DNA of 64,000 nucleotides, from the IMG/VR virus record IMGVR_UViG_3300022927_001391, positions 41,169 to 105,168 of that record. One strand, 5' to 3'. The DNA comes from a virus. The notes below the pieces were generated by a model. That model searched no databases. It had not been told where the DNA came from and saw nothing but the letters and a program-made list of their open reading frames with translations. The position numbers were made by a program, and so were the translations under genes. Shown piece after piece: positions 1 through 55,400 of the stretch. How positions within the stretch are numbered: position 1 is the stretch's first letter; the number at the start of each line of letters is the position of its first letter.

Positions 1-2
1 TC

Positions 3-191
3 AGTGATTGTGAACGTATTGTCGTATTCCTTGAGGACTGGCAGAGTGGTCATTACTTCGAGATAGATGGCTGTGGAAAAGTAAATTGGAAAAAGGGTGA
101 CTATGTTTACTGGAAAGGCGACACAGAACATATGGCTGCAAACTTAGGTACCACAAAGAGATACACACTTCAAATAACAGGACACAAATAA
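3..191 (+). CDS. 3' part of a 2OG-Fe(II) oxygenase/cupin-like protein (5'-truncated by window)
   Basis: Hand translation of frame 3: [23 protein letters not shown]...[34 protein letters not shown]. Similar to the C-terminal half of 41647..42186 (EDYCLGHF...WKQGDALLW...HLGANAG..KYTMQISG). Stop overlaps the purT ATG (TAATG). Not in the ORF track. Confidence 0.75.
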
Positions 192-1366
192 TGAAACGTA
201 TATTATTACTAGGTAGCGGTGAACTTGGCAAGGAGTTTGTTATCAGTGCTAAAAGACTTGGCTGTTATGTTGTTGCTTGTGATAGCTATGCAGGTGCGCC
301 GGCGATGCAAGTAGCAGATCAATATGTTGTTTTTGATATGTTAGATGGCGAAATGTTATCTAATATTATAGATGAATACAAACCAGATCTCATAGTACCA
401 GAGATTGAAGCTATCCGTACAGAAGTCTTACTGGAAAAGGAAACACAGGGTTATACAGTTGTTCCTACAGCAAGAGCAACTAACCTAACAATGAATCGAG
501 ATCGTATTAGGGATCGTGCAGTTGAACTTGGTTTGCGTACAGCAAAGTTTGAATATGCTGAGGATTTAGAAATACTACAAAGTGCTTGTAGACGGATTGG
601 GTTTCCCTGCGTTGTAAAGCCTGTAATGAGCTCAAGCGGTAAAGGACAGAGTGTAATTGATGAGGAGCGTGAGGTGGATGCTGCATGGAAATATGCAGTA
701 TCAGGCATGCGTGGCGACAGGCAGCGTGTTATTGTAGAAGAGTTTATTGATTTTGATTTAGAACTTACACTGCTAACTGTAAAGCAACATGATGGACCTA
801 CGCTTTTCTGTCCACCAATTGGTCATTATCAGGAGCGTGGAGACTATCAGTACAGTTGGCAACCTGCACTAGAACAAACTTTTACAGGGCATATTATCGA
901 AACACATGCACAAGAGATGGCAAAAATCATTACAGATGATTTGGGTGGTGCTGGTATATTTGGTGTAGAGTTTTTTGTTAAGACCAAAGGCAATAGTCCT
1001 GAGGTTATCTTCAGCGAACTGAGTCCACGCCCACACGATACTGGAATGGTAACCATGTTTACGCAAAACCTAAGTGAGTTTGACTTACATGCAAGAGCTA
1101 TACTGGGATTACCAATTGGTGAAATTAAACTGGTACGTCCGGGCGCAAGTCACGTTGTACTAGCACATGAAACTATACATGAGTTTATTATAAGCGGTAT
1201 TAACGATGCACTTAAAATACCAGACGTTGATGTAAGAGTGTTTGGTAAGCCTACGACTAGACCATATCGTAGAATGGCAGTTGTACTTGCACCTAGTTTA
1301 GAAATTGCAAAAGAAGCAGCCGGTAAAATTAGTGTGATAGATATTGCAAGTGATGCAGGTGCATAA
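191..1366 (+). CDS. purT: Formate-dependent phosphoribosylglycinamide formyltransferase (ATP-grasp)
   Basis: [61 protein letters not shown] are PurT signature motifs; 391 aa. Confidence 0.93.
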
Positions 1367-1968
1367 TGGAATACAAAATTTTAGATAAGTTTGAACATGC
1401 GCTTAGTGTATATACTGGTGCACCATTTGTTGTACTCACTGATAGTTGTACTCATGCTATTGAACTTTGTCTACGACTAAAGCATCCCAAAGGACCTGTA
1501 ATACTTCCCAAACACACCTACATTAGTATCCCAATGACAATACACAAGTTGGGATTAGAGTTATATTGGGACAAGGATTATAACTGGGAGTATGAATATC
1601 GTATTGCTCCTACAAATATCTGGGATAGTGCTAGAGCATTTGATGAAAATATGTATGTCAGCGGTCGTATGCAATGTCTAAGTTTTGGCTGGGATAAACG
1701 TTTGGCTATTGGTCATGGCGGTGCTATTCTACTTGATAGTAGGAGCGATTACTTCCAGTTAAAGCGTATGGCGTATGATGGCAGAACGTTAGATACTTCT
1801 CCTTGGGAGAATCAAACTTATTGGCGTTTAGGGTTTCATTACAATATGAGACTAGAAGATGCAGCAAAGGGCATAGATATGATGTTTCATCCAGAAGAAA
1901 TGCCAAACAAAGAAAGTCAGTTAAAGACTTATCCAGACTGTAGCAATATTAAAGTTGACTTATCTTAA
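1366..1968 (+). CDS. Short DegT/DnrJ-family PLP aminotransferase-like protein
   Basis: DSCTHAIELCL, WDSARAF, CLSFGWDKRLAIGHGGAIL (SFxxxK PLP lysine), GFHYNM; only 200 aa. Confidence 0.75.
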   Translation: MEYKILDKFEHALSVYTGAPFVVLTDSCTHAIELCLRLKHPKGPVILPKHTYISIPMTIHKLGLELYWDKDYNWEYEYRIAPTNIWDSARAFDENMYVSGRMQCLSFGWDKRLAIGHGGAILLDSRSDYFQLKRMAYDGRTLDTSPWENQTYWRLGFHYNMRLEDAAKGIDMMFHPEEMPNKESQLKTYPDCSNIKVDLS

Positions 1969-1983
1969 TTTATATCTTATAAT
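1955..1983 (+). promoter_or_regulatory. sigma70-type promoter for folE-yhhQ
   Basis: TTGACT (1955-1960), 17 bp, TATAAT (1978-1983), followed by AAGGA RBS and ATG at 2011. Confidence 0.75.
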
Positions 1984-2010
1984 TAAAAAAATTACAAAGG
2001 AACACAGTAC

Positions 2011-2691
2011 ATGAGAAAGACTTCCGATATTATTCGTAATCGCATTCGCGAGACAAACACACGTTTTCATTCTAATGATAACATTAGTGAGTTCATTGAA
2101 GAAGGTGAACTGACACTACTTCAACAAGAAGTTGAAGATAGATTCCAAGAAGTTCTCGATGCACTAATAATTGATACAGAGAACGATCACAATACACAAG
2201 AGACAGCCAAGCGTGTTGCCAAGATGTTTATTAATGAAACATTTGGCGGCCGTTACGCACCAATGCCACGGGTTACGGCATTTCCTAATATGGGTTACAA
2301 GAGCATGTATACCAGCGGCCCTATTAGTATCCGTAGTACCTGTGCTCACCACTTCCAAAACATCGTGGGCAACTGCTGGGTCGGAATTATCCCAGAAGAT
2401 GAAGTAATTGGTCTTAGTAAGTTCAATCGCATCATTCACCATATCGCTGAACGCCCACAGATTCAGGAAGAAATGACTACACAGATTGCAGAAGCATTAA
2501 AAGAATATGCAAAGACAGAGCATATCGCTGTAGTAGTTAAAGCTGAACATCATTGTATGACACATCGTGGTGTTCGCGAACATGAGAGCGATATGACTAC
2601 CGCAGTGATGTGTGGTGGATTTCTAAATGATCCAAGTGTAAAGCAGGAGTTTTACAACATCTGTTTGAGCATGAAGGGTCATAGTAACTAA
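2011..2691 (+). CDS. folE: GTP cyclohydrolase I
   Basis: ETAKRVAKM, STCAHHF, GLSKFNRI, RPQIQEEMT, AEHHCMTHRGV motifs with the Zn ligands. Confidence 0.95.
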   Translation: MRKTSDIIRNRIRETNTRFHSNDNISEFIEEGELTLLQQEVEDRFQEVLDALIIDTENDHNTQETAKRVAKMFINETFGGRYAPMPRVTAFPNMGYKSMYTSGPISIRSTCAHHFQNIVGNCWVGIIPEDEVIGLSKFNRIIHHIAERPQIQEEMTTQIAEALKEYAKTEHIAVVVKAEHHCMTHRGVREHESDMTTAVMCGGFLNDPSVKQEFYNICLSMKGHSN

Positions 2692-2705
2692 TCAGGGAGA
2701 AACAT

Positions 2706-3329
2706 ATGTTGAAGTTACTAGAAGGTGTAGATCGCAAGTTGGTTAATCAGCTTGTTATCATGCACGTAATCGTAATTGCACTTTCAAATTACTTGGTGCA
2801 GTTCAAGTTTAACCTGTTCCCAGGTGCTAACTTGCCATTCTTTGGTGAGTTTCCACTTGCAGTTGCAGCATTTACATTTCCAATTGTAGTTGTTGCCACT
2901 GACTTGACCGTCCGTATGGTGGGCAAGGAAGCAGGCAGGGCAGTTGTTGCCCTAGCAGTCATCCCAGCAATCATTGTAAGTATTTTGGTTGTTTGGGGCG
3001 GCGGTGCACCAGTTGAGAAGGCACTACGTATTGGTGCAGCAAGTGGTGTTGCATATGGCGTTGGTACAATGCTAGACGTTTATGTATTCCAGCATATTCG
3101 TGAGAAGTTCACAGAGATGTGGTGGGCTGCTCCAGCATTTTCAACAGTCTGTGCAAACGTACTAGACACTTATGCGTTCTTCTATACAGCATTTTATCCA
3201 GCACCTTGGGTACATGCTGTTGCGTTCAACCAAACAATTACAAAGATCGTTGTAGGGTTGATTGTGTTCCTACCAGCATATGGTTTCCTACTAGGCCATC
3301 TGCGTAAGAAACTAGGGCGTACTCTATAA
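2706..3329 (+). CDS. yhhQ: preQ0/preQ1 (queuosine precursor) transporter, VUT family
   Basis: Multi-TM protein; SNYLVQ, AFTFP..VATDLTVR, LDVYVF match YhhQ; adjacent to folE. Confidence 0.85.
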   Translation: MLKLLEGVDRKLVNQLVIMHVIVIALSNYLVQFKFNLFPGANLPFFGEFPLAVAAFTFPIVVVATDLTVRMVGKEAGRAVVALAVIPAIIVSILVVWGGGAPVEKALRIGAASGVAYGVGTMLDVYVFQHIREKFTEMWWAAPAFSTVCANVLDTYAFFYTAFYPAPWVHAVAFNQTITKIVVGLIVFLPAYGFLLGHLRKKLGRTL

Positions 3330-3342
3330 CAATAACGCTATG

Positions 3343-3375
3343 AAACGGAGGGTCCGTGTTGGGCCCTCCGTTTTC
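3343..3375 (+). terminator. Rho-independent terminator after yhhQ
   Basis: AAACGGAGGGTCC-gtgtt-GGGCCCTCCGTTT stem ending in a T run. Confidence 0.75.
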
Positions 3376-3391
3376 ATAAAGGACAACTTTA

Positions 3392-3694
3392 ATGCCAAAA
3401 ATATATGAATCACCAGACGGTGGTATTACTATACGTGCAAGAGAAATAGGCGATCCTATTTCAAGTACTATTACAATCGGGGGCTCGACCTCAACGGTGA
3501 CAAGTACTGGATTTGGAAATGCAGCTAACATTACCATAACTCCTCCAACTGATCCTCTTGAGGAATATTTGCAACAAAGACTTGATATGATGGACAAGTA
3601 TCCAGAATTAAAAGAAAAATGGGAAGAGTTTGCAGAGTTAGAACGCCATTACAAAGCCTGGGATTTACTTAATATAAAGGAAAGTAAAGTATGA
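3392..3694 (+). CDS. Hypothetical phage protein
   Basis: ORF with AAGGA RBS; IYESPDGG.T..R N-terminus; ends in an ATGA-type junction with the next gene. Confidence 0.6.
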   Translation: MPKIYESPDGGITIRAREIGDPISSTITIGGSTSTVTSTGFGNAANITITPPTDPLEEYLQQRLDMMDKYPELKEKWEEFAELERHYKAWDLLNIKESKV

Positions 3695-4011
3695 AATGGT
3701 TTGATAAATGGTTTTATAAACAAAGTAAAAAGGCGTGGGAATCGCAATCTTGTAATTCAACCCCTAGCGTCGACGCTAGGAGTATTCCTAACGTCCCTAC
3801 TCATGGTAGGCCTACTCCCAGTAATATAGGGGTAGAAGGATTAAATATGCAAGTTGCTAGAGCTACAGGTGGATATATAATTCAATTCAATAGATATGAT
3901 GGTCTTAACGACGTTAATAATAGTAATCTTTATATTATCAATGACGAAGATGATTTTGATACAAAAATTAGTAGTATTATTAAGTTGGAAATGTTTAAAC
4001 TTCCACATTAA
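3691..4011 (+). CDS. Hypothetical phage protein
   Basis: ORF coupled to the previous one, with RBS. Confidence 0.6.
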   Translation: MKWFDKWFYKQSKKAWESQSCNSTPSVDARSIPNVPTHGRPTPSNIGVEGLNMQVARATGGYIIQFNRYDGLNDVNNSNLYIINDEDDFDTKISSIIKLEMFKLPH

Positions 4012-4025
4012 CAAAAAATTTAAGA

Positions 4026-4058
4026 AACGGTAGACAAGTCTAGACTCTGTGTTATTAT
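4026..4058 (+). promoter_or_regulatory. Early-type promoter of the subtilase gene
   Basis: AAACGGTAGACA, 16 bp ending GTGT, TATTAT; same architecture as the promoter cassettes at 18.2-19.4 kb. Confidence 0.55.
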
Positions 4059-4113
4059 AAGAGTATGTTCAAGGTGAACATGCTCTTTTTAGTCAAACTA
4101 ACACGGGGTTAAA

Positions 4114-7100
4114 ATGACTTATAAGACACTAGCAAGCGCATTGCTCGCCACTACAATGCTGACAGCGTGTCAGGGTGGCGGAAGCGCAGTTAACACAGTA
4201 AAGCGTGAACTTAGTCCTACAGCGAATATCAATTTTGCTGCTATCTCAGGTGAAATTTCTGCTCTAGAGGCAGCAGTAATGGAAGCACAGGGCGCATCAA
4301 GCCTTAGTGCAATCCTTAATCCTACACAAGCAGACAAACATATGGCAGGAGACATTGTCAGCAAGATTGACAATGTTATAGCTAGTTGGGATAGCCATAA
4401 GGCAGAAATGAATGCCAAACTCTTGGCAGTAAAACTAGCTGATCCTGACTTTCAGAAAGCTGAAGCTGTAGTAAACATCCTCAAAAATCAGGTGCGTCCA
4501 CTTGTTGTTAACGTAACTGAAGGCAAGGCTTACGATACTACCAAGTTTGTCTTTATGGAAAAGAAAGAATCACTGGATAAGGTTATTGAAGATACTAAAA
4601 AGGATATCTTTAATAATGTTGTACCAACTCTTATTAGCTCAAGCACAAGCGCAGTAAAGGTATCTGAAACTACAGCTACAAGTTCGGCAGAGCGTATTAG
4701 TGAAACCGTTGTTACAGACGGTGAGCAGACAGTGCGTGGCGGCACTGGAATTAGTGACCTAACTCGTACTGCTAGCTGGACACGCACTACAACTAAGAAG
4801 ATGGTATATGATCGTAGCTGGAGTGTTACATTACAGAACGTAACAACCTCTGTATTCAGCGATGGTACAACTAAGACTGAAAATGGTGCAGAACGAGAAG
4901 TTCCTTATAAGGTAACTCTTGATGCATCACCGCAGGTAAGTACTGAATCGCTATCTAAAACTATTGCTTACAGTGTTAAAGAAAATAACGATCCTGCAAT
5001 TACGGTTACACGCGGTTCAGCGTCAGTCGAGAATGTATACGAAGATCGTGTAGAGAAGGTTACACAGAGTGATGGTAGCATTCTACACAATACGATTCGT
5101 AAGACAACTACAACGACTACCACGCCAGTTACTACTACTAAAACTTATCCTAAGATCAGCGTCTATACATATGAGGATGGACACTCGTTCACTCATGATG
5201 CTACGGATGAAGTTATTAGTAGTGTGGAAAACGAAGTAGTAGTAACTACTAGTGAGTCCACTATTAACTCAACTACTGAACATGTGGTTACCAAGGAAAC
5301 AACAACAAACGAAATCATTACTGAAGTAGTAGAGAGCGAGCCGGTATTTGATACTGTTTATGAGGATAAAACTACAACTGAAACAGTTGATAGCAAAATC
5401 ATTACAACAGTTACTCGTTACTATACCACTACAGCCACAGTAACAACTACTACTACCACAAAAACTACTCCAGTCACCAAGCAGATTTGGACTGATGGTA
5501 CTGAGAAGATTATTCGTGGTGACACTGTTACTGATGTAAAGACTGCTAGTACTGTTGCCAAGGATACCTGGACCAAGGTAATGAGCACCACAACCACAGA
5601 TGCGCCGGCTGATACTACGCCTATTGCTGACGATCACCCGGATATGGGAACTCGCACAGCAGGTTATAATACTGATCCAACAAGTTATCGTACATCAGAA
5701 TTTACAGGCACTAAAGGCGTAAACTTTCTGAGTGCTGTTAAAGCAGATGTTGCTTACTCACGTGGTTGGACAGGTAAAGGCAGTCTAATTACCATTGCTG
5801 ATACTGGCTGGGACAGAGATCATACAGATCTTTCTAGTGCGGTGAAGCATGAGTATAATACACTAACTGGCGGCACTAACACTTTTATGGATGACAACGT
5901 TGGTCACGGTAGTCATGTGTTGGGCATCGCGGCTGGGCGTAAGAACGGGTCAGGCATCCACGGTGTTGCATTCGATGCAGACGTAGCTGTAGTTAAGGTG
6001 ACTGACAGCACTGTTTATAGCTTCCAGCGAGCTAGAGCTGGCGCAGCATGGGCCAGAGATTTGGGTAGTATTGCTTTCAGTGCCAGTGCAAACTGGAATG
6101 AAGACAGTGCGTTCAGAAGCAGTATCGTAAATATCGGTTCTGGAATGAATTACAGTAATCACTGGTACTACGGTGAGAATGGATACAATGGTGCTGTAGA
6201 CGAAGCCAAGTTGTGGGCGACTGCACTAGGTAGCGAACAGATCCTTGTGAACAGTGCTGGTAACTTTGCTAAAGACTATGTATCAGGCAGTGCACAGATG
6301 GCCCATGCTACTGATGCAAATGGAAACCTTATTATGGGCGGACGCATGCTGATTGTTGGTAGCTATGATGTTACTAACAATAAAATCTCTAGTTTCAGCA
6401 ACAAGGCTGGTACTGTTTGTGCCACCTGGGACTTTACAAATAATCTCTGTAAAGATGCTGCAAGGGCTAGCGACTTCTATATCCTTGCTCCAGGCGAACG
6501 TATTGAAAGTGCTTACAAGGATGGCACAACTGTAACAATGAGTGGTACAAGTATGGCTGCTCCTGTGGTTACAGGATCACTTGCTATCCTACACCAGATG
6601 TGGCCACATATGAAAGGTGAAAACCTCGTTAAACTTGTTCTGCAGACTACTAACAAGGACCTGCCAGGTTACACTGTGGAAACACATGGACAAGGCATGT
6701 TGGACTTGGACAAGGCTACACAGCCTGTAGGTGCAACAGGTATTCCAACAAGCGGGCGTACGAGTGGTGCTATTGCTAACCTTGAAACACTAAGTGGTGG
6801 CGCTGCTGTCGGAAGTATTAGTAGCGATGCATTTGCGGCACTAAGTAATGTTACGGTGCTTGATAGCTTTGAGCGTGATTTTACAATCAATCTAAACAAC
6901 ACTCAAGCTATTGATACTCGTCCTGGATCGTCAACAGAAGCACTAAGTTTTGGTGCAAACTATGACGGTTATTGGAATCTTGCTAATGCCGGCGAAGGCA
7001 CTAGTGACTTGTTTGGTATTAGGACATCATTCAAGTTTGACCCAGATGCTAAAGCCAATGGCGACTGGGGCATGCGTACAGAGTATGATGTGCATAGTAG

Positions 7101-7662
7101 CGAAGAAACTACTATTACTGCCGCACTTGGAATGATTAAGGAGACAGGTAAGTTCCTTAACAACGTTCAGGAAGGCTTTATGGGAGTTGGTGAGTCACAC
7201 ACCACAAACTATGCAGGCTTGCGTCTCAATCACAAGTTTGATGAGAACTGGTTTGGGTTTGGTAACTTCCAGTTGGGCATGACAGACGTTGAGTCATCCA
7301 AGGAGTTTAGTCTAGTAACTGGGTACAGCACCCTAGTAAGTAACAGTTGGGGTGTCGGTGCAGGTTACAAGTTTACTAACGGGTGGACTGTTGGCGCTAA
7401 CTTTAGTCAGCCAATGACAGTTACAAGCGGTAAGATGAACTACAAGGTTCCAGTAGGACGTACACTTGACGGACAGGTATTATTTAATGAAGGAAGTGCT
7501 GATGCAAGTACGAAAAATATTGAATATGATACCGGTTTGTTTGTAAAATATAATGTAAACAATGTTGCACTTGCTGGCTATGCAGAGCATCGTAGCAATG
7601 TTGCAGGTGTCTCAGGTAACAATGAAGTTAACCTAGGCATGAAAGTGAACTTGAAGTTCTAA
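4114..7662 (+). CDS. Lipoprotein S8 (subtilisin-like) serine protease with Thr-rich stalk and autotransporter-like C-terminal beta-barrel
   Basis: Lipobox LTA-C; catalytic IADTG, GHGSHVLG, NSAGN, SGTSMAAP; C-terminal alternating beta strands ending KVNLKF. Confidence 0.85.
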   Translation: MTYKTLASALLATTMLTACQGGGSAVNTVKRELSPTANINFAAISGEISALEAAVMEAQGASSLSAILNPTQADKHMAGDIVSKIDNVIASWDSHKAEMNAKLLAVKLADPDFQKAEAVVNILKNQVRPLVVNVTEGKAYDTTKFVFMEKKESLDKVIEDTKKDIFNNVVPTLISSSTSAVKVSETTATSSAERISETVVTDGEQTVRGGTGISDLTRTASWTRTTTKKMVYDRSWSVTLQNVTTSVFSDGTTKTENGAEREVPYKVTLDASPQVSTESLSKTIAYSVKENNDPAITVTRGSASVENVYEDRVEKVTQSDGSILHNTIRKTTTTTTTPVTTTKTYPKISVYTYEDGHSFTHDATDEVISSVENEVVVTTSESTINSTTEHVVTKETTTNEIITEVVESEPVFDTVYEDKTTTETVDSKIITTVTRYYTTTATVTTTTTTKTTPVTKQIWTDGTEKIIRGDTVTDVKTASTVAKDTWTKVMSTTTTDAPADTTPIADDHPDMGTRTAGYNTDPTSYRTSEFTGTKGVNFLSAVKADVAYSRGWTGKGSLITIADTGWDRDHTDLSSAVKHEYNTLTGGTNTFMDDNVGHGSHVLGIAAGRKNGSGIHGVAFDADVAVVKVTDSTVYSFQRARAGAAWARDLGSIAFSASANWNEDSAFRSSIVNIGSGMNYSNHWYYGENGYNGAVDEAKLWATALGSEQILVNSAGNFAKDYVSGSAQMAHATDANGNLIMGGRMLIVGSYDVTNNKISSFSNKAGTVCATWDFTNNLCKDAARASDFYILAPGERIESAYKDGTTVTMSGTSMAAPVVTGSLAILHQMWPHMKGENLVKLVLQTTNKDLPGYTVETHGQGMLDLDKATQPVGATGIPTSGRTSGAIANLETLSGGAAVGSISSDAFAALSNVTVLDSFERDFTINLNNTQAIDTRPGSSTEALSFGANYDGYWNLANAGEGTSDLFGIRTSFKFDPDAKANGDWGMRTEYDVHSSEETTITAALGMIKETGKFLNNVQEGFMGVGESHTTNYAGLRLNHKFDENWFGFGNFQLGMTDVESSKEFSLVTGYSTLVSNSWGVGAGYKFTNGWTVGANFSQPMTVTSGKMNYKVPVGRTLDGQVLFNEGSADASTKNIEYDTGLFVKYNVNNVALAGYAEHRSNVAGVSGNNEVNLGMKVNLKF

Positions 7663-7674
7663 GGAGAAAAGGTA

Positions 7675-8133
7675 TTGAACCTAACTACGCTGACATATGA
7701 AAATGTAGAAGCACTACAGTTTGATACCAACCACGACCCCGTGAGACCCGAGCTTGACCTTAATTTTAGGTTGGGCCCGGGTCGTCGGGTTTATGTGTTG
7801 GAAACGGACGGTAAGTATCAGGCAGCAATTTGCGTTGCCTATACTAATGAAGTACCAACTACTGTAAAGGAACTTGACCTTATGAGTCAGGCTGCTTGTC
7901 AGGAAGATCAACACGGTTCTATTTGCGTAGCATATACAGTTTGGAGTCGTGCGCCACGTGCTGGCAGAGACGTTGTTTTTCGTTTGCTAGATGAATGTCG
8001 TGCAAATGATAAAGTCAAACGTCTTATTACACTAAGTCCAAAAACGGATATGGCACGGAGGTTTCACTTAAACAATGGAGCAGTTACTTTGCAGAACAAT
8101 ACTGCAACTGATAACTACGAATACAGTTTATGA
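7675..8133 (+). CDS. GNAT-like phage protein
   Basis: AYTVWS..PRAGR and TLSPKT.MARRFHL.NGA resemble GNAT motifs A/B; TTG start after AAGGAG. Confidence 0.5.
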   Translation: MNLTTLTYENVEALQFDTNHDPVRPELDLNFRLGPGRRVYVLETDGKYQAAICVAYTNEVPTTVKELDLMSQAACQEDQHGSICVAYTVWSRAPRAGRDVVFRLLDECRANDKVKRLITLSPKTDMARRFHLNNGAVTLQNNTATDNYEYSL

Positions 8134-8567
8134 ATATGTTCAAAGATAGGAAACGTGTAATCCTAGATCGCATTGGGCAGAAGCCCTACTTGGTTAGGTA
8201 TTACTTGTTTCTAAAAGATCGTAAATGGTTTCCATTTAATGTATTTTTACATAAGTTTTTACAAAGCGATCCGGATGAACTACACGATCATCCCTGGCCC
8301 TACTTCACGCTAATCTTACGTGGGGGTTATTGGGAGACTACTCCTAAAGGACGCTTCTGGCGTGGTCCAGGACACATGCGTTTTAGCGGTCCTAAGAGTC
8401 TACATCGTGTAGAACTAGAACCAGGAGTATGTGCTTGGTCACTATTCATTCCTGGTCCTAAACTACGTGAGTGGGGTTTCATTGTCAACGGCAAATGGAT
8501 GCACAATGAAAAGTATTTTGAATGGCGTAAGCAAAAGGTGAGAGATGAAAAAATTATATCTGTCTAA
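8130..8567 (+). CDS. Cupin-fold phage protein
   Basis: LHDHPW...GGYWE...HRVEL metal-binding cupin pattern. Confidence 0.65.
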   Translation: MNMFKDRKRVILDRIGQKPYLVRYYLFLKDRKWFPFNVFLHKFLQSDPDELHDHPWPYFTLILRGGYWETTPKGRFWRGPGHMRFSGPKSLHRVELEPGVCAWSLFIPGPKLREWGFIVNGKWMHNEKYFEWRKQKVRDEKIISV

Positions 8568-9057
8568 TCGAGATATTGAAAAGGGTGTACATAACGTTAT
8601 AAAGCAAATGTATGCTGACAACTGGCGGCCCGATTATATTGTAGGTATTACCAGAGGTGGATTAATTCCTGCTGTTCTAATGAGTCATCTTACAGGTATT
8701 AAAATGCACACACTGGATGTTCGTTTGCGTGATGGCGATGAACAAGAATCCAACTGTTGGATGGCAGAAGATGCATTTGGTATTTTCCAAATGGGTGGCA
8801 TATATGAAGATAAGAAAATTCTTATCCTAGACGATATTAACGATAGTGGTGCTACATTCCAATGGATTAAAGAAGATTGGCCGGCAGGCTGTCATCCAAA
8901 TGAACACCGATGGGATAAAGTTTGGAATCAGAATGTTCGCTTTGCAACTATTGTAAACAATCTTGCAAGTCCATTTAACATCGATTATACAAGCATTGAA
9001 ATTAACAAAGCTGAAGAAGATACATGGGTCGTATTCCCCTATGAGGAGTGGTGGTGA
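8545..9057 (+). CDS. Type I phosphoribosyltransferase (Gpt/Hpt-like)
   Basis: VGITRGGLIPA, ILILDDINDSGAT (PRPP loop), WVVFPYE. Confidence 0.85.
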   Translation: MKKLYLSNRDIEKGVHNVIKQMYADNWRPDYIVGITRGGLIPAVLMSHLTGIKMHTLDVRLRDGDEQESNCWMAEDAFGIFQMGGIYEDKKILILDDINDSGATFQWIKEDWPAGCHPNEHRWDKVWNQNVRFATIVNNLASPFNIDYTSIEINKAEEDTWVVFPYEEWW

Positions 9058-10803: not shown

Positions 10804-10832
10804 TTGACTCTCAATCATAAATATCTTACAAT
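10804..10832 (+). promoter_or_regulatory. sigma70-type promoter of queD with embedded late-like CATAAATA
   Basis: TTGACT (10804-10809), 17 bp, TACAAT (10827-10832); CATAAATA at 10816-10823. Confidence 0.7.
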
Positions 10833-10907: not shown

Positions 10908-11381
10908 ATGGCAAAATATATTAGTACAAAAACATACAGGCATTTAGGTCCAGTAGCATACAGACAGTGGAGAGCAGATTCACACTGCAATCTTATCCAC
11001 GGATACGCATTAAGTTTCCATTTTGAATTTGAAACTGATGACCTAGATGCTCGTAACTGGGTAGTAGACTTTGGTGGATTACGTCCACTAAAGGATAGCT
11101 TAGAAGATTGGTTTGATCACACTCTGCTAGTAGCACAGGATGATCCAGACCGCGACACGCTACTAGAACTAGGCAAGAAAGGCCTAGCAAAGATTACAGA
11201 AGTTGAAAAGACTGGATGTGAAGGTCTGTCAGACTTTTTGTATGAATACGTAAACACAATATTTTTACCTAGTTGGGAACCTGGCACTAGGGTATGGTGC
11301 TGTAAGGTTGAGGTAAGAGAAACTGACTCAAATATGGCTATGCGAGTTGGTCACAGAGAAGATGGAGAATTCGATGTTTAA
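10908..11381 (+). CDS. queD: 6-carboxy-5,6,7,8-tetrahydropterin synthase
   Basis: HCNLIHGY, VVDFGGL, FDHT, GCE, VRET T-fold PTPS motifs; next to queE. Confidence 0.9.
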   Translation: MAKYISTKTYRHLGPVAYRQWRADSHCNLIHGYALSFHFEFETDDLDARNWVVDFGGLRPLKDSLEDWFDHTLLVAQDDPDRDTLLELGKKGLAKITEVEKTGCEGLSDFLYEYVNTIFLPSWEPGTRVWCCKVEVRETDSNMAMRVGHREDGEFDV

Positions 11382-11571: not shown

Positions 11572-12435
11572 ATGAAAGTAAGATATACTGAAGCGTTTTA
11601 TTCAGTTCAAGGAGAAGGTCGCTGGACAGGTGTGCCCAGTGTATTCCTTCGTATGTATGGTTGTAACTTTACTTGTCCTAAGTTTGGTATTGCTAGGAAC
11701 AGTAACGAAACAGCAGAGCCTCAGATCCAAAAGATTGTAGATGAGATTGATAACTATGATACACTTGAGGATCTCCCACTTGTGACTGTAGGGTGCGATA
11801 GCTATGCTGCTTGGCACCCTGCATTCAAACGTTTTCAACATGATGTAGACATTGATCAGCTGGTTGATGATCTACTTGCACTTACACCAACAGGTGCATG
11901 GTCATTGGATAATGGTCAGGATATCCATTTGGTAATCACAGGCGGTGAGCCTCTATTAGGTTGGCAACGAGCATATATACAGTTGCTAGAACATCCACGC
12001 ATGAAGGACTTGAAGAATGTCACGTTCGAAACTAATACTACACAATCTCTGTCAGAGGATTTCAAAACGTACCTCACAGATAATCAACAGGTACACATTA
12101 CATTCTCTTGCTCCCCTAAACTATCGGTTAGTGGACATACTTGGGTTGATGCTATCAAGCCTGATGTTGCTGTTAAGTACGCTAGTGTTCCTAACAGCCA
12201 CTTGTATCTTAAGTTCGTTGTTTCTGATGATGTTGACGTGGCAGAAGTTGATAGAGCTGTTGCAGAATATAGATCTGCGGGACTTGAAGCGCCGGTTTAC
12301 CTCATGCCTGTTGGCGGTACGACAGACAGTTACTTCAAAAACGGTCGTCAAGTCGCAGAGCTCGCCCTCGAAAAAGGCTACAGATATAGCCCACGCCTCC
12401 ACGTCGACGTCTTCGGTAACGCCTGGGGAACCTAA
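11572..12435 (+). CDS. queE: 7-carboxy-7-deazaguanine synthase (radical SAM)
   Basis: EAFYSVQGEG..G.PSVFLR..GCNFTC, GCDS, ITGGEPLL, FETN, SPKL, YSPRLH. Confidence 0.9.
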   Translation: MKVRYTEAFYSVQGEGRWTGVPSVFLRMYGCNFTCPKFGIARNSNETAEPQIQKIVDEIDNYDTLEDLPLVTVGCDSYAAWHPAFKRFQHDVDIDQLVDDLLALTPTGAWSLDNGQDIHLVITGGEPLLGWQRAYIQLLEHPRMKDLKNVTFETNTTQSLSEDFKTYLTDNQQVHITFSCSPKLSVSGHTWVDAIKPDVAVKYASVPNSHLYLKFVVSDDVDVAEVDRAVAEYRSAGLEAPVYLMPVGGTTDSYFKNGRQVAELALEKGYRYSPRLHVDVFGNAWGT

Positions 12436-12468: not shown

Positions 12469-13026
12469 ATGAGAACAGTTTGGGTAAGACACGGACAAAG
12501 CGAATATAATGCTAAAAATTTAGCAACGGGTTGGCACGATCCTGATCTTACCCAACTTGGGGTAGAACAGGCATTTGAAACAGCTAGAATTTTAGCTCAA
12601 AGATACACAATGATCGCTAGTATACATACTAGCGATCTTCGTAGAGCAGTACAGACAGCTAGTATAATTTTACAAAGCTCGCCATGGTTTGTTGAGACAG
12701 AAATAGATAGTAGATTGCGTGAACGTGACTATGGTGATTGGAGCGGTAAAAACAAGGATGAAAACCGTTTAAGTGTAGGAGATGAAAGATTTTTATCTAT
12801 ACGCCGAGGCTGGGACATTGCTCCCCCTAACGGTGAGAGTTTGAAAGATACTGCTAGTAGAGTAGCAAATTATTTGGACAATATAGAACAAAGTAATCTT
12901 CCGATTATTTTTGTTTGTCACGGAAATACTATAAGAGCAGCAAGTGTGATTTTTGGAAAAAATACACCGGAATCTGTTGTAGATTGGGAAATAGAGACTG
13001 GAGGTTTCATAGAATGGGAATACTAG
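12469..13026 (+). CDS. Histidine phosphatase / dPGM-type phosphoglycerate mutase
   Basis: RHGQSEYN, TSDL.RA, LRERDYG, PPNGESLKDT, CHGNTIR. Confidence 0.85.
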   Translation: MRTVWVRHGQSEYNAKNLATGWHDPDLTQLGVEQAFETARILAQRYTMIASIHTSDLRRAVQTASIILQSSPWFVETEIDSRLRERDYGDWSGKNKDENRLSVGDERFLSIRRGWDIAPPNGESLKDTASRVANYLDNIEQSNLPIIFVCHGNTIRAASVIFGKNTPESVVDWEIETGGFIEWEY

Positions 13027-21612: not shown

Positions 21613-22237
21613 ACATGTTGGGAGACAAGGTGGGGAGAACGTCGTAGTAGTTTTCCGTGAAGTTCCCGGTGAGGAACATATGTGCCTGGTAGTTTACCCA
21701 GGTCAACTACCCACATCATTTCATGATGACCTTATGCGGTGTATTGAGAGTAACGCAGGACAATCATCAAGTCATCTAGGCGAAGCAATGAGTCGTGTAG
21801 TAGGTACTGATGGTCGTAATCTGCTACAAGCAGTACATGCAGAACGATGGATGAAGAAGATTCGTTGTCAGGATGTTATCATGACTCCAGTACCAAATAA
21901 ACCAGGCGCTCGGTTAGATGAAATTAACAAGATCATTGCTGAAATGGAATCAGGTGCAGATGCTGCCAAGCGTATGGCAGAGATTGATGCACAAGCTGGT
22001 CTAGCAGATCCGGCTAAGACTATTGACAATACAGCATATGCTGCAAGTGCTCAGGGTGTACTAACTGATGCAGATATTGCTGCAGACCTGCTGAAGCAGG
22101 CAACACAAATGGAATCACAGATTGCAGGACTACAGGCAGAAGTTGCACGTCTTACTGAAGAAGCAACTGCACTTGATCCGAGTGTTGCTCCAGCACCTGC
22201 TCCTAAGAAGCGTGGCCGTAAGAAGGCTGCTGCCTAA
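21605..22237 (+). CDS. Conserved hypothetical phage protein (coiled-coil, basic tail)
   Basis: Start reassigned to ATG 21605 (MLKHVGR) after GGAG; C-terminal KKRGRKK. Confidence 0.65.
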   Translation: MLKHVGRQGGENVVVVFREVPGEEHMCLVVYPGQLPTSFHDDLMRCIESNAGQSSSHLGEAMSRVVGTDGRNLLQAVHAERWMKKIRCQDVIMTPVPNKPGARLDEINKIIAEMESGADAAKRMAEIDAQAGLADPAKTIDNTAYAASAQGVLTDADIAADLLKQATQMESQIAGLQAEVARLTEEATALDPSVAPAPAPKKRGRKKAAA

Positions 22238-22917
22238 TGAAGGTAAGCCTGGTTAGTTTTAGTCAAGCCAGTCCAGAGTTTTTAACTGAACACGGTCTTA
22301 CTGACGCAGATGTGCAGGACCTTATTGCGTTCTGTGCTAGAGTCAGCAACCCTAGTGGACAGTTAAACATGGAAACTAGCGCCAAGCTCATCAAATATCT
22401 CATCAAACACAAGCACTGGTCTCCCCTAGAAATGGTTAGTGCTTGTATGGAGATTGAAACTACTCGTGACATAGCAAGGCAGATCCTACGTCACAGGAGT
22501 TTTAGTTTCCAGGAATTTAGTCAACGCTATGCTGATCCCACAAAGGATTTAGAGTTCGTTACCCGTGAAGCACGTTTGCAGGATACTACAAACAGGCAGA
22601 ACAGCATTGATACAGAAGATGCTAGTCTACAAGCAACATGGGAAAATAAACAGCTCAATGTTATCGAAGCTGCTCAAAAGGCATATGCGTGGGCTATTGA
22701 GAATGGTATTGCTAAAGAACAAGCCAGAGCTGTATTGCCTGAGGGCAATACAGTAAGCCGCATGTATATGAACGGTACGCTACGTAGTTGGGTACACTAC
22801 ATTGAACTACGTGGTGCTAATGGTACTCAAAAAGAACACATGGATATTGCCCATGCGTGTGCACGAGTAATTGCAGATGTGTTCCCACTTGCGGACGAAA
22901 TGTTTGAATGGACGTAA
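22237..22917 (+). CDS. thyX: FAD-dependent thymidylate synthase
   Basis: HWSPLEM, RQILRHRSFSFQEFSQRY, EQARAVLP, GTLRSW.HY..LR, TQKEH. Confidence 0.95.
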   Translation: MKVSLVSFSQASPEFLTEHGLTDADVQDLIAFCARVSNPSGQLNMETSAKLIKYLIKHKHWSPLEMVSACMEIETTRDIARQILRHRSFSFQEFSQRYADPTKDLEFVTREARLQDTTNRQNSIDTEDASLQATWENKQLNVIEAAQKAYAWAIENGIAKEQARAVLPEGNTVSRMYMNGTLRSWVHYIELRGANGTQKEHMDIAHACARVIADVFPLADEMFEWT

Positions 22918-23180: not shown

Positions 23181-23449
23181 TGGCAAAAGTTATTAAGAAA
23201 ATTATTACTACTCCACCTGATATAGATAGTATTACTCAAAAGCTTGGTATTGGTAGATTAGAACTGGTCAGCATTGCAGCTAATATAGCCAGAACTAAAA
23301 GGGTAAAAGCTACCGAGGCATTGTGGATGCTGGATCGGGGCGAAGTGGCCTTGGAGCAAGTTCGAGAAAATATTGTTCTACAGTTACAAAAACACGTTCC
23401 AGAACTGGAACAAAAGCAAGAAGATGATACGCCTACACAATCTGAATAG
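23180..23449 (+). CDS. Hypothetical protein
   Basis: TAATG-coupled ORF. Confidence 0.55.
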   Translation: MAKVIKKIITTPPDIDSITQKLGIGRLELVSIAANIARTKRVKATEALWMLDRGEVALEQVRENIVLQLQKHVPELEQKQEDDTPTQSE

Positions 23450-24416
23450 ACTATACGAGGAACTATCTCCAAGTTTAGAACGCATGAACGACCTGGTTTT
23501 AAAATCAGGTCGTGTCATGTTGGGCGAATTTACTGAAAAATTTGAAAACAGAATAGCAACTGTTGCTGGTGTTGAACATGCCGCAGTAGTAGGCAGTGGC
23601 AGTGATGCCTTGTATTATGCTCTAATAGCAGAAAAGGTAGATGGACCAGTAGCAATGCCTGCGCAAACATTTATTGCTACTAGCAATAGCATCGCAAGAG
23701 CAGGATGTCAGCCTGTGTGTATTGACATTAAACCTAATGGATTGCTTGATTGGAATTTAGTTCCGCAAGAGATTGAAACAGCGGTATGGGTAGGATTGTT
23801 TGGAAACACTGAACATATTCCTGATGACTGTTTTGTAATAGAAGATGGTGCTCAACATTTTGGAGCGCCCTTACAAGCAGACACTGCTGCTTACAGTTTT
23901 GATCCCACAAAAGCATTACCCAACTTTGGCAATGGTGGTGCTGTAGTAAGCTGGGATAAAAAGGTTATTGATAGAGTAAAAGAATTACGTAGACATCATA
24001 CAGTAGACGGGCATGTTGGTGGCAATAGTATTATGAGCGAGCGTGATTGTGCTGAGATGCTAGTTAAATTAGATCATTTCCCGTTCTGGCAAGAGCGTAG
24101 ACAGGAGATTGCTAGAGATTATCATCAGCAGTTAGGCAGATACGTAAAGTGTGTAACTGATGCAGATGGACAAGTTAGTAAGTTTGTTATTGAAACATCA
24201 CGTAGAGCTGACTTACAAGCACATCTAACACATCGTAAAATAGAAACAAAACGTGCCTATAGTGAGCCTATTGCTACACTAGACAGAGCAGTGGCAAACT
24301 GTCATAAGTTTTTACAGTTGCCTTGCGATCCATATATGACTGATGAAGAACTGTTAGCTGTTGTAGTGGCTATCAAAGAATTCTTTGAGGAAAGCCCACT
24401 CGAAGGTTTGCTGTAG
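23424..24416 (+). CDS. DegT/DnrJ/EryC1/StrS NDP-sugar aminotransferase
   Basis: GSGSDAL, TFIAT, IEDGAQHFG, YSFDPTKALPNFGNGGAV; start adjusted to ATG 23424. Confidence 0.85.
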   Translation: MIRLHNLNRLYEELSPSLERMNDLVLKSGRVMLGEFTEKFENRIATVAGVEHAAVVGSGSDALYYALIAEKVDGPVAMPAQTFIATSNSIARAGCQPVCIDIKPNGLLDWNLVPQEIETAVWVGLFGNTEHIPDDCFVIEDGAQHFGAPLQADTAAYSFDPTKALPNFGNGGAVVSWDKKVIDRVKELRRHHTVDGHVGGNSIMSERDCAEMLVKLDHFPFWQERRQEIARDYHQQLGRYVKCVTDADGQVSKFVIETSRRADLQAHLTHRKIETKRAYSEPIATLDRAVANCHKFLQLPCDPYMTDEELLAVVVAIKEFFEESPLEGLL

Positions 24417-52446: not shown

Positions 52447-55400
52447 TTAGGGTCTTACCTCAACATAACCGTCCTCTACATATCCATCTTCTAGATAATA
52501 TGGAGAGTTACTCTCTGCTATGAAGTTGGGTACAAATGCTTCTCGTGCTCTTAAGAATCTAGCATTCACACTATTACTTGCCTGTAAGCCAGCACCATTA
52601 GCTGCTGATCCTACTCCAGCATCATACCATATATGTGTATGCGTATTAGTTTCTGGTAAATTTTGATCAGAACTTGCATCAATCACTCTTGTACCTACAC
52701 GGTGTATTGTAGCAAATCTGGTGCCAGCAGTACTTCTTCTAATATTGGTAATATAATTGTCTTCTGTGTTAATTTCCCAATAAGTTACACGCTCATTGCC
52801 AACAAAAATTACACCTGGATTATCACTGTCTACACTTGCCTGTGGTAGCTTACTGACATCATCCACATAGATTTTTGTATCAGTTGGGTATAAGTTTTGT
52901 GTTAATTCTGTTGTATTATCAGCGGCAATTCTCAAATATTCATAATCACCCAGCATGTTTTTAAAGATTCTAAAACCAATAGTTGGTTGGACGACATTTT
53001 CTGTAAAATGAGATATAACTATTATACTAGTAGAATCAATAGTTTGACCAGATAAGTCAATAACGTTTCCATTTTCAATTATAAACTGTCCGGGATGTAG
53101 TTTTACACCGTTTAACGTTATCCACAAATTATTGCTATTGGTTACTGTACGATCCAGGGCATATTTGCTAGGAGAGCTACCAGCTAGTGATATTCCGTCA
53201 AAGTCGCCAGAGTCAAAGCTATCATCGTCAAATCCTATTACTGTTTCTAAAATCTCCGAACCTAATCCTACGAATACCTTGGTTTGTATACGTAATGGAT
53301 CATGGTTAGCAAATGTTGTAACATACAATTTATCACCTGTACTGAAACTTACGCTGCTAGTAAGTGTAATAGTGTTTCCATCTACTAGATATTCTGCTCC
53401 TGTTCTCACACTTACAATAACTGTATCACCTGAGCTTGGTGCAGTATAGAATGTTATAGTTCTTAAACTACTGCCATCTGTTGGATCAACAACATAATCA
53501 ATACTTGCTACTTTGTTGGTTGGTGGATTTAGTGTACTACTGTCATCTTTGCTTATGACAGTTACTCGGATATCACCATCGTTAACAAGAGCGCTTTCTT
53601 CTGCTGTGCCTGGGATACTATAAGTTACTGTACTACCATCGCCCACATAGTGCTTTGCGTTTGTTGGTCGTAGTCTTAAATTGTTAAGTTCAACAATAAC
53701 ATTGCCCTCAAAAGGTTGAGCATATCGTACAGTTTTATTCAACTCGTATGTATTAGTACCAGAAGTTAAGGTTATTTCCTGAGTATCGATCTCAGTATAC
53801 GCTTGTCTGCTAGGATCTTTGTTGAAAGCAAACACGTGAACATGATCATTTTCTGCAGGAACGTCATTTAATATAAGGATGCTAAGTCCATTGTCTTGCA
53901 CTGTATATTCTGCTGTTGACAAGGTTTCACCATTTATCAATACAAGATATTGTTGTGCTAAGTCGTAATTGATACCTAAAGTAAATGTAAATGTTTCACC
54001 ATCTGTAAAGAACGATTCCTCATGCACGGGCTTTTCACCAGTGTTACCAAAACTGTAAATGTACACTGTTTGACCTACAGTAGGTGCAGTAGCTAATGTT
54101 ACTGTTCTATTCAAATAATTTTTAGTGAATGATCTAACAGGTGTAGCGTTTAAGTACACAAACACGTTTTCTACATCTTGTGCTTTTGTAGTATTACTAA
54201 AAATAAACGTATTAGTTGTGCCATCCCCTTCATAAGATCTAAACACTGTTTCAACGCCATTACCATCCCATTCAAAATCATCACTAGGATCTGTAAAGAC
54301 TTCCATATCCAATGTGTCAAATACTATACCTGGTATTACTTCTTCTGGCGCATGACTATTGTATTCATCTACAAACTGTCCACCATTTACATCAATATCT
54401 TCTGGACGAGTTCCTAATGCTAGGTCCTGGAACGTACTCTTAATAATGCTATCAAGTGCGCTAGCACCACTTAATACTGTAAGTCCGTCAGTATCAATAT
54501 CAAAATCGTCAAAACCAACATTATCAAATGCCGCTGTGTCCCAGCCTGGTTCTCTTTCAAAGCCAGCGCCAGATACTCTTACACCTTTATAATCAGTTCC
54601 GCGCTGTAATAGGTCTAGATCGTCACCAAGCATGCCGGCTGTAGGAGTATAAAATGCAGCAATCCTATCAGCATTACTTGCTAGATTTTCATCTGCATAA
54701 ACTTCTAATACTGTAGTTCCGCTTGAGTTCTCTACACTGAAAGTACTGCCGCTGGTAAACCCACCTGAAACGATGCATTTATACACTTCTTGAGAACCTG
54801 TAACTGAGTTATAGTAGGAAATTAAATCATTTTGACTATAAGATGTATTAGCTGCCCAGTTCATAACTGTTGAACTGTAGGTAATTCTATCAAACTTCAT
54901 GCTAATATCAAATTCACGATTTGTATTATTAGCCATTCTGGCTAGTAGAATACATCCTGTTCCAGCACCAGTTACTGTAATAGTAGGAGTAGTAATATAA
55001 CCGCTACCAGGATTTGTAATTCTTACTCTAATAATATTATTAGTATTACTAACAGCAACTACAGTCGCTCTTACTCCGCCAGCAAGATCTGGTGCACTAA
55101 CAGTAACTATCGGATCCTGAATATAACCAGACCCAGCAGCATATATTTCTACGCTTGACAGGAAGTAACTATAATTTTTACTCCAGGGATTATTCAAACC
55201 CTGTGTACGGAGTATTTCATCGCCACTGTAATCACCACTGGGCTTTCTAAACAGCATTAGATTTTCATCATAAAATGCATGAACGTCAAAGTCGGTTACG
55301 TCTCCGTCAAAATTATCATTACCATCAAATTTAGATACATATTCTCTGATCTTGGTATGGTACGGTTTTACCTCGTTTATATAATCTTCAATAAGGTGAT

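Follow-up and report, generated by a model that had tools for sequence, protein, structure and literature searches.

PurT formylates glycinamide ribonucleotide (GAR) independently of tetrahydrofolate (PMC10882993), and the Escherichia coli enzyme (PDB 1kj8, 1eyz) is the closest described counterpart of the subject of this report, a purT gene carried by an uncultured virus. The gene lies near the start of a stretch of 64,000 nucleotides (hereafter, the window) that corresponds to bases 41169-105168, the end portion, of a 105,168-base IMG/VR virus record (IMGVR_UViG_3300022927_001391). The window and E. coli proteins share a three-domain ATP-grasp architecture, approximately 55% identity and the ligands of ATP, Mg and GAR. 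Unlike its counterpart, the window PurT is phage-encoded, belongs to a shorter-form subclade and is surrounded by genes for sugar tailoring and deazaguanine synthesis, with no other de novo pur gene found. Based on its residues, we are confident in predicting a canonical formate-dependent GAR transformylase, and we consider it probable that this host-derived enzyme sustains a folate-independent purine supply during infection. This view is built on direct observations, namely the family membership, the intact active site, the place in the PurT tree and the gene context.

Three other systems resemble the locus in part. Like the window PurT, DpdN is a phage-encoded relative of a GAR formyltransferase of the purine pathway found near deazaguanine genes. 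DpdN is however a folate-dependent PF00551 protein of the PurN type, encoded together with the full route to 7-aminomethyl-7-deazaguanine (preQ1), from FolE to QueF, whereas the window PurT is an ATP-grasp enzyme with an intact GAR site, in a record where QueC was not found and in a cluster of the DpdL (7-deazaguanine) type. The 2′-deoxy-7-deazaguanine (dDG) system of Cellulophaga phage phiST comprises FolE, QueD, QueE, DpdL and DpdA, without QueC (PMC10516641). The neighbourhood of the window purT matches it in encoding FolE, QueD-like and QueE-like proteins, a T-fold protein with an LxxxHRHxF motif and a 485-aa protein with a DSGGFQ motif, again with no QueC found; unlike phiST, the cluster of the window and its relatives adds a glycosyltransferase of the GT-B type, a short-chain dehydrogenase/reductase (SDR), a nucleoside diphosphate (NDP)-sugar dehydrogenase, a cupin, a short DegT-like protein, a YhhQ-like transporter and PurT. 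In the main text of the paper defining DpdL, aminotransferase, PurT and YhhQ have 0 occurrences each, and dDG was not reconstituted by DpdL and DpdA alone (PMC10516641). Finally, the N-formyl amino-sugar pathways of the Arn and Fdt types (Ugd, ArnA, ArnB; FdtA, FdtB, FdtF) resemble the gene run around purT in their NDP-sugar dehydrogenase, SDR, cupin and DegT-family pyridoxal phosphate (PLP) enzyme. These pathways use a PF00551 transferase dependent on N10-formyltetrahydrofolate, of which none was found in the record of the window; unlike in these pathways, the DegT-like protein of the window has only 200 aa, and PurT bears no sign of an altered substrate site.

Family Membership and Active Site of PurT

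The window PurT exceeds the equivalog cut-offs of both TIGR01142 (518.3 bits against 502.15; 517.9 bits in the whole-record search) and NF006766 (540.7 bits against 339). Its Pfam domains follow the canonical order, with a preATP-grasp domain (PF22660) at residues 1-97, an ATP-grasp domain (PF02222) at residues 111-297 and PurT_C (PF21244) at residues 318-375. Alignment to the E. coli structures 1kj8 and 1eyz gave an E value of 3e-105, and a hand count gave the identity of about 55% over 380 residues. For the active site, we take the ligand residues to be those of the Thoden/Holden (Holden-laboratory) structures and of UniProt P33221. In E. coli numbering, the ATP and Mg ligands R114, K155, E195, E203, E267 and E279, as well as the GAR ligands G21/E22/L23, E82, D286, K355, R362 and R363, are identical in the window PurT.

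In a 72-sequence alignment, all 14 ligand positions are invariant in the 27 other phage PurTs (27/27). Among 44 bacterial PurTs, 13 of the positions are invariant and R114 is kept in 43. The GAR ligands E22/L23, E82, D286, K355, R362 and R363 are invariant in all 71 compared sequences. The window protein also matches 141 of the 143 columns conserved in at least 95% of bacterial sequences, and its two deviations are conservative (I to L, L to M). It thus appears to be under the same constraints as cellular PurT. It is not of the Formyl_trans_N fold, the family PF00551 being unmatched across the 105-kb record and in 47 related records, and it matched no PHROG family. In the close relatives L007 and L042 (10001-11224), PurT has 409 aa and is about 18 residues longer than in the window.

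Probable Host Origin of the Phage purT Gene

The nearest cellular PurTs, 73-78% identical to the window protein, are encoded by metagenome-assembled genomes (MAGs) of freshwater Pelagibacterales, one of which is a 666-kb chromosome. Identity is 66-69% for Limnohabitans and 52-57% for typical Pseudomonadota. In a tree built with IQ-TREE under LG+C20 with posterior mean site frequencies (PMSF), the window PurT and those of loci L005-L009 (together, the window clade) are sister to the Pelagibacterales pair within a clade of bacterial PurTs, with a Shimodaira-Hasegawa-like approximate likelihood ratio test (SH-aLRT) value of 97. The stem and tips of the window clade are no longer than those of its Pelagibacterales sister. 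A long branch (0.99) sets typical Pseudomonadota PurT apart from the subclade of the window protein, whose members are of the shorter form and also come from Pelagibacterales, Limnohabitans and a small number of other freshwater bacteria. PurT is 76-94% identical among six related contigs with the same neighbours. An initial annotation of this stretch had suggested a phylogeny of phage and bacterial PurTs and had set its idea of a new formylation step against nesting within ordinary host PurT; such nesting is what the tree gave, with Pelagibacterales as sister group and a branch that is not long.

Judging from these closest relatives, the gene donors, and possibly also the hosts, would be freshwater bacteria akin to Pelagibacterales. 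No PurN above cut-off was found in two Pelagibacterales MAGs (G040 and G041), which are possibly incomplete and gave formyltransferase-family matches of 38-59 bits only, and a Limnohabitans genome has a clear PurN. In Pelagibacterales cells resembling the presumed donors, gene content thus suggests that PurT may be the sole GAR transformylase. G040 and G041 would perhaps rely on formate for GAR formylation, and are candidates for the donor or host.

Gene Order around purT

CheckV rates the 105,168-base record as 29% complete, which makes it a fragment of a giant phage genome predicted at roughly 350 kb, uncultured and from freshwater. Megablast of window positions 1-8000 against deposited phages returned no match. 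The features considered here are the following, in window coordinates:

1-191, + strand: 3′ end of g173, predicted cupin-fold gene (173 aa), which starts 330 bases before the window and overlaps purT at a TAATG
191-1366, + strand: purT, predicted formate- and ATP-dependent GAR transformylase (391 aa), from HMM matches, domains, ligand residues and tree
1366-1968, + strand: DegT-like protein with a PLP-binding domain only (200 aa), partial Pfam match, TAATG-coupled to purT
1955-1983, + strand: promoter-like site TTGACT-N17-TATAAT, a consensus match just upstream of folE
2011-2691, + strand: folE, GTP cyclohydrolase I (PF01227, 158.9 bits; phrog_2197, 182.5 bits)
2706-3329, + strand: YhhQ-like queuosine-precursor transporter (TIGR00697, NF008406, Pfam Vut_1)
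8545-9057, + strand: divergent type I phosphoribosyltransferase, xanthine/guanine phosphoribosyltransferase-like (PF00156, 51.8 bits)
10804-10832, + strand: second promoter-like site, TTGACT-N17-TANAAT, a pattern match upstream of queD
10908-11381, + strand: queD-like gene of the PTPS/QueD family (PF01242, 53.7 bits; TIGR03367, 32.7 bits, below cut-off)
11572-12435, + strand: divergent queE-like radical SAM gene, N-terminal QueE NCBIfam matches only

Open reading frames (ORFs) and family matches confirm the positions given in the initial annotation for purT (191-1366), the DegT-like gene (1366-1968) and folE (2011-2691), as well as the TAATG coupling of purT to the DegT-like gene, an overlap located at 1364-1368. 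Its statement that folE follows purT holds for the order of the genes, with the qualification that the DegT-like gene, coding for a PLP-binding domain only, sits between the two. A second TAATG at 189-193 joins purT to the upstream 173-aa gene. The part of the record upstream of the window was examined as loci L002-L004, the coordinates of L004 being those of the window plus 9168. L004 contains, with consecutive overlaps, a 349-aa gene of GT-B size, a 279-aa SDR epimerase/dehydratase and a 405-aa NDP-sugar dehydrogenase. Together with the cupin, purT and the DegT-like gene they form an overlapping run of six genes, in which purT is the fifth.

This tight packing is not peculiar to purT. In a longest-ORF model, overlaps join 72 of the 110 pairs of adjacent same-strand genes, and 12 of these overlaps span a single base. 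Since start/stop overlap is the default in this phage genome, the coupling of purT says little about a shared function. The absence of other pur genes, also part of the initial annotation, was borne out across the 105-kb record for PurN/Formyl_trans_N, AIRS (PurM/PurL) and PurA, whereas PurD, PurF, PurC, PurE, PurK, PurB and PurH were not searched by family.

Promoter-Like Sites and Candidate Transcription Units

The best promoter-like site of the region, TTGACT-N17-TATAAT, agrees with the consensus at 11 of 12 positions; it extends over the final codons of the DegT-like gene and lies 28 bases before folE. The looser pattern TTGACT-N17-TANAAT occurs in two copies in the 64 kb, against 0.06 expected, one before folE and the other before queD; the two sites share the spacer end ATATCTTA, and the folE site is kept in the relative L007. 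Given this two-copy pattern shared by folE and queD, folE-yhhQ and queD-queE may be co-regulated units. By the same reading, purT would belong to the sugar run, upstream of the folE site and not behind that predicted promoter. No terminator was seen, and read-through is possible.

The Deazaguanine Genes

FolE keeps the C-x-H-H and H-x-C zinc-site motifs when aligned to solved GTP cyclohydrolase I (GCH-I) structures, and is a divergent member of its family that falls below the NCBIfam equivalog cut-offs (175 against 202). The queE-like gene has N-terminal matches to QueE NCBIfam models (E value of 7e-12), far below their cut-offs, and no Pfam match; it is kept beside queD in related loci. QueC (PF06508) was not found in the 105-kb record, which covers about 29% of the genome, and QueF was not searched. 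With no QueC in the record, there is no visible source of preQ1 other than import. Directly 3′ of folE, in this cluster without QueC, lies the phage-encoded YhhQ-like transporter of 7-cyano-7-deazaguanine (preQ0) or preQ1, which scored 89.6 bits with TIGR00697 (cut-off 50.95), 139.7 bits with NF008406 (below the cut-off of 252) and 76.5 bits with Vut_1.

The 485-aa protein, encoded before the window at 2617-4074 of L004, has an invariant DSGGFQ motif. Searches of Pfam, NCBIfam, PHROG and PDB sequences came back empty, also when a 12-sequence profile was used. We take DSGGFQ to be a motif of the tRNA-guanine transglycosylase type; this is the sole support for the label DpdA, and 'DpdA-like' is used here as a tentative name. 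The T-fold protein carries LAHPHRHIF, which fits the LxxxHRH(xF) motif described for DpdL. LxxxHRH is the motif of DpdL, the proposed decarboxylase of 7-carboxy-7-deazaguanine (CDG) in phages lacking QueC (Cui, Hutinet and colleagues, PMC10516641). Between the S8 protease region and queD, the phosphoribosyltransferase-like gene at 8545-9057 reached 41.9 bits with NF006613, far below the cut-off of 138; its product could recover guanine set free in base exchange, or attach phosphoribose to a deazaguanine base.

PurT in Other Phages and Its Association with Deazaguanine Genes

PurT was found in 39 IMG/VR loci, nearly all of them small fractions of genomes predicted to be large; most of the records compared here are fragments representing 1-30% of a genome. 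About 16 of these loci are T4-like, with the gp45 clamp, the gp44/62 clamp loader, RegA, PurT and an RNase H-like gene. PurT follows PurA in L014, L015 and L022, where deazaguanine genes are absent from the vicinity, and in L036, where PurA-PurT comes after a DpdA-like gene, a T-fold gene and a GT-B gene. L010 has the order DegT-like gene, cupin-like ORF, FolE and QueD, then PurT only 24 bases after queD, then QueE. The window clade retains the succession SDR, dehydrogenase, cupin, PurT and DegT-like gene even where the 485-aa DpdA-like gene, the GT-B gene and FolE are rearranged. PurT thus recurs as an auxiliary gene in large uncultured phages, frequently among genes of nucleotide metabolism or replication.

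Deposited phages offer little of the kind. A tblastn search with PurT against 50,697 deposited phage records returned no convincing phage PurT, all 11 matches being below 60% identity; they were unannotated 'Bacteriophage sp.' fragments of faecal origin, two contigs under the label Acinetobacter phage MD-2021a, one 378 kb long, and matches at the level of PurK (about 26%). A marine virome survey lists purT among viral auxiliary metabolic genes (PMC10653327). Credible PurT genes are present in dozens of uncultured large-phage contigs, and have no PHROG family.

PurT lies within about 5 kb of FolE, QueD and QueE or of a DpdA-like/T-fold cluster in the window clade, L010 and L036. The eight deazaguanine-linked PurTs, a group set from gene context before tree building, fall at three separate points of the PurT tree. 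A constraint uniting them in a single clade was rejected by the approximately unbiased (AU) test (delta lnL 90, p-AU 0.0015), which indicates that the juxtaposition of PurT and deazaguanine genes was made or renewed more than once. Such recurrent placement hints that purine or one-carbon supply limits this type of DNA modification. The co-occurrence anticipated by the initial annotation is therefore seen in three separately placed phage lineages, but the link is loose. FolE is present in 8 of the 39 PurT records, deazaguanine genes are missing from the surroundings of most phage PurT loci, and PurT is mostly found next to PurA or in T4-like modules.

The reverse comparison starts from the short DegT-like gene, found in 45 viral loci, 39 of which are not close relatives of the window. 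In about 30 of these 39, it lies a few hundred bases upstream of FolE, in clusters ordered DpdA-like, T-fold, ..., DegT-like, FolE, QueD, QueE. None of the 39 records carries PurT, including a 317-kb record rated 89% complete, and a PF00551 formyltransferase was found in none of 47 related records nor in the window's own. Non-orthologous displacement, with a PF00551 enzyme in the stead of PurT in relatives devoid of it, was rejected, none being present in the 47 records. Because both enzymes are missing from these sets (0/39 and 0/47), no formylation step is conserved downstream of the DegT-like enzyme, and PurT displaces no folate-dependent enzyme. PurT is a lineage-specific insertion into a module of sugar and deazaguanine genes.

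Possible Roles of the Phage PurT

Folate-independent upkeep of the purine supply is the most likely role of the window PurT, whose enzymatic activity, expression timing and physiological benefit are inferred. The enzyme would use formate and ATP to formylate GAR, and so carry out step three of de novo purine synthesis, from which C8 of the purine ring derives. The gene would have been taken up as a host-derived auxiliary metabolic gene, with freshwater Pelagibacterales as closest cellular kin, and in one giant-phage clade would have come to lie between the cupin and short DegT-like genes, near the end of the six-gene sugar-tailoring run and just upstream of a separately promoted folE-yhhQ unit. 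Folate-independent formylation of GAR could thereby be kept running while GTP is drawn on for DNA replication and for 7-deazaguanine synthesis by FolE, QueD, QueE and the DpdL-type T-fold protein. This role fits a phage that replicates about 350 kb of DNA and turns GTP into 7-deazaguanine. It also agrees with the contexts of PurT elsewhere, either directly after PurA (L014, L015, L022 and L036) or in T4-like gp45-gp44-gp62-RegA modules, that is, in nucleotide and replication settings.

Several points weigh against this role. The margin over the TIGR01142 cut-off is only 16 bits, and activity on GAR is predicted from residues only. The purT gene sits within a series of overlapping sugar-enzyme genes (GT-B, SDR, NDP-sugar dehydrogenase, cupin, PurT and DegT-like), which alone would suggest a shared pathway. 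Moreover, a lone pur gene would raise flux through the pathway only if step 3 is limiting or if host expression collapses, and no further de novo pur gene was found among the families searched in the 105 kb, about 29% of the genome.

That PurT might recycle formate had also been raised in the initial annotation, and this salvage loop refines the purine-supply role rather than opposing it: PurT would still be a GAR transformylase, and would re-fix the formate that FolE sets free from C8 of GTP into C8 of new purines. In a variant, PurT would make purine synthesis less folate-dependent while the folate precursor 7,8-dihydroneopterin triphosphate (H2NTP) is diverted to deazaguanine. The window also encodes ThyX, a type of thymidylate synthase by which folate is not oxidised to dihydrofolate and which would suit such an economy. 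The chemistry is established on both sides, as GCH-I (FolE) releases one formate per GTP consumed. PurT in turn uses formate without tetrahydrofolate (PMC10882993). Formate recycling is plausible in being chemically sound and compatible with the repeated juxtaposition, PurT being near deazaguanine genes in the window clade, in L036 and, 24 bases after queD, in L010, at three tree positions for which a single clade is rejected (p-AU 0.0015). The other side of the ledger is the absence of PurT from all 39 other records with the DegT-like gene, some 30 of which have the deazaguanine module and one of which is 317 kb long and 89% complete, together with the scarcity of deazaguanine genes around most phage PurTs (FolE in 8 of 39 PurT records). 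The promoter-like site of folE is common only to queD and leaves PurT upstream, and the counts, which lack a background frequency of deazaguanine genes among these phages for comparison, do not establish enrichment. On balance, we regard the salvage loop as possible, if improbable, as an account of this gene. The wider proposal that PurT was put beside 7-deazaguanine genes at least two to three separate times, with a one-carbon loop freeing the GTP drain of DNA hypermodification from folate, is rather doubtful.

The remaining readings depart further from the purine-supply role. The initial annotation had advanced the folate-independent N-formylation of preQ1 or of an amino sugar. In this reading, a neofunctionalised PurT would formylate the product amine of the DegT-like enzyme, as in Arn- or Fdt-like pathways, or preQ1, and would replace a PurN-type enzyme such as DpdN. 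The overlapping run with SDR, NDP-sugar dehydrogenase, cupin and DegT-like protein does provide the cast of an N-formyl amino-sugar pathway minus its formyltransferase, and the 105-kb record lacks a PF00551 enzyme. The N-formylated deoxy-preQ1 (fdPreQ1) and its predicted maker DpdN are documented (PMC10516641). Yet the residues binding the phosphoribosyl and glycinamide parts of GAR are all kept, 141 of 143 conserved columns are matched, and the branch shows no acceleration. Another 39 viral records have the DegT-like gene but neither PurT nor a PF00551 enzyme, and PurT of the same type is found elsewhere beside PurA or in replication modules. With start/stop overlap as a default and no QueC in the record, hence no visible preQ1 source save import, such a function is extremely unlikely. 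The proposal is not supported, given the intact GAR site, the ordinary branch length, the lack of QueC and the relatives devoid of both PurT and formyltransferase; this idea can be removed, and the gene filed as a purine-supply auxiliary gene. An ATP-grasp ligase that activates the carboxylate of CDG and couples it to an amine in a pathway without QueC is barely conceivable. ATP-grasp chemistry, from carboxylate and ATP through an acyl phosphate to an amide, and the lack of QueC are all that speaks for it, against the conserved residues of PurT, its small formate pocket and the absence of PurT from 39/39 other DegT-like-gene records, about 30 of the QueC-less cluster type; it was rejected on residue conservation. 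A neutral passenger, that is, a recently captured host gene of no benefit to the phage, would account for the closeness to cellular PurT (73-78% identity) and the patchy distribution among related phages. It is very unlikely, since purT is intact, with its active site kept, across six contigs (76-94% identity) and at least five other phage lineages, which indicates purifying selection.

The Short DegT-Like Protein, the Cupin and Other Genes

The DegT-like protein has a partial match to DegT_DnrJ_EryC1 (52 bits), confined to profile positions 24-87 of 360. Its family comprises 2529 clusters and measures about 200 aa throughout, short of the two-domain length of DegT proteins (about 360-390 aa). 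K111 and D87 are invariant in 30 homologues and, from motif reading, would be the Schiff-base lysine and the pyridine-binding aspartate, respectively. The structural model (predicted local distance difference test, pLDDT, 94.8) resembles the PLP domain of sugar aminotransferases, among them perosamine synthase, ArnB and WbpE, with template-modelling (TM) scores of about 0.65-0.72 over the query and 0.32-0.41 when normalised to the targets. The T4-like loci L194, L196 and L197 combine the DegT-like gene with a cupin and a sugar dehydrogenase in the absence of deazaguanine genes, and the cupin alone accompanies it in L193 and L195. The DegT-like protein is best read as a sugar-pathway enzyme.

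The 173-aa protein gave no Pfam or PHROG match. Its H-x-D...H residues are invariant in 11 homologues, and its model (pLDDT 72) best matches the folds of Fe/2-oxoglutarate dioxygenases and small cupins, by which it is predicted to be a cupin. The DegT-like protein, the cupin and the GT-B protein have no counterpart in PHROGs. The short DegT-like gene (window 1366-1968; loci L160-L192) closely precedes FolE in about 30 DpdA-like/DpdL-type clusters of diverse viral contigs, and this set of short DegT-like, cupin and glycosyltransferase genes travelling with DpdL-type clusters is the more interesting biology of the stretch.

Other genes of the window deserve mention. A 1182-aa protein with a subtilase S8 domain is encoded at 4114-7662 and is kept downstream of yhhQ in relatives. 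A histidine-phosphatase (phosphoglycerate-mutase-like) gene at 12469-13026 lies directly 3′ of the queE-like gene, ThyX is encoded at 22237-22917, and a second DegT-family aminotransferase, full-length with 347 aa, is encoded at 23373-24416. On the minus strand, an ORF of 3842 aa at 52447-63975 occupies the end of the window.

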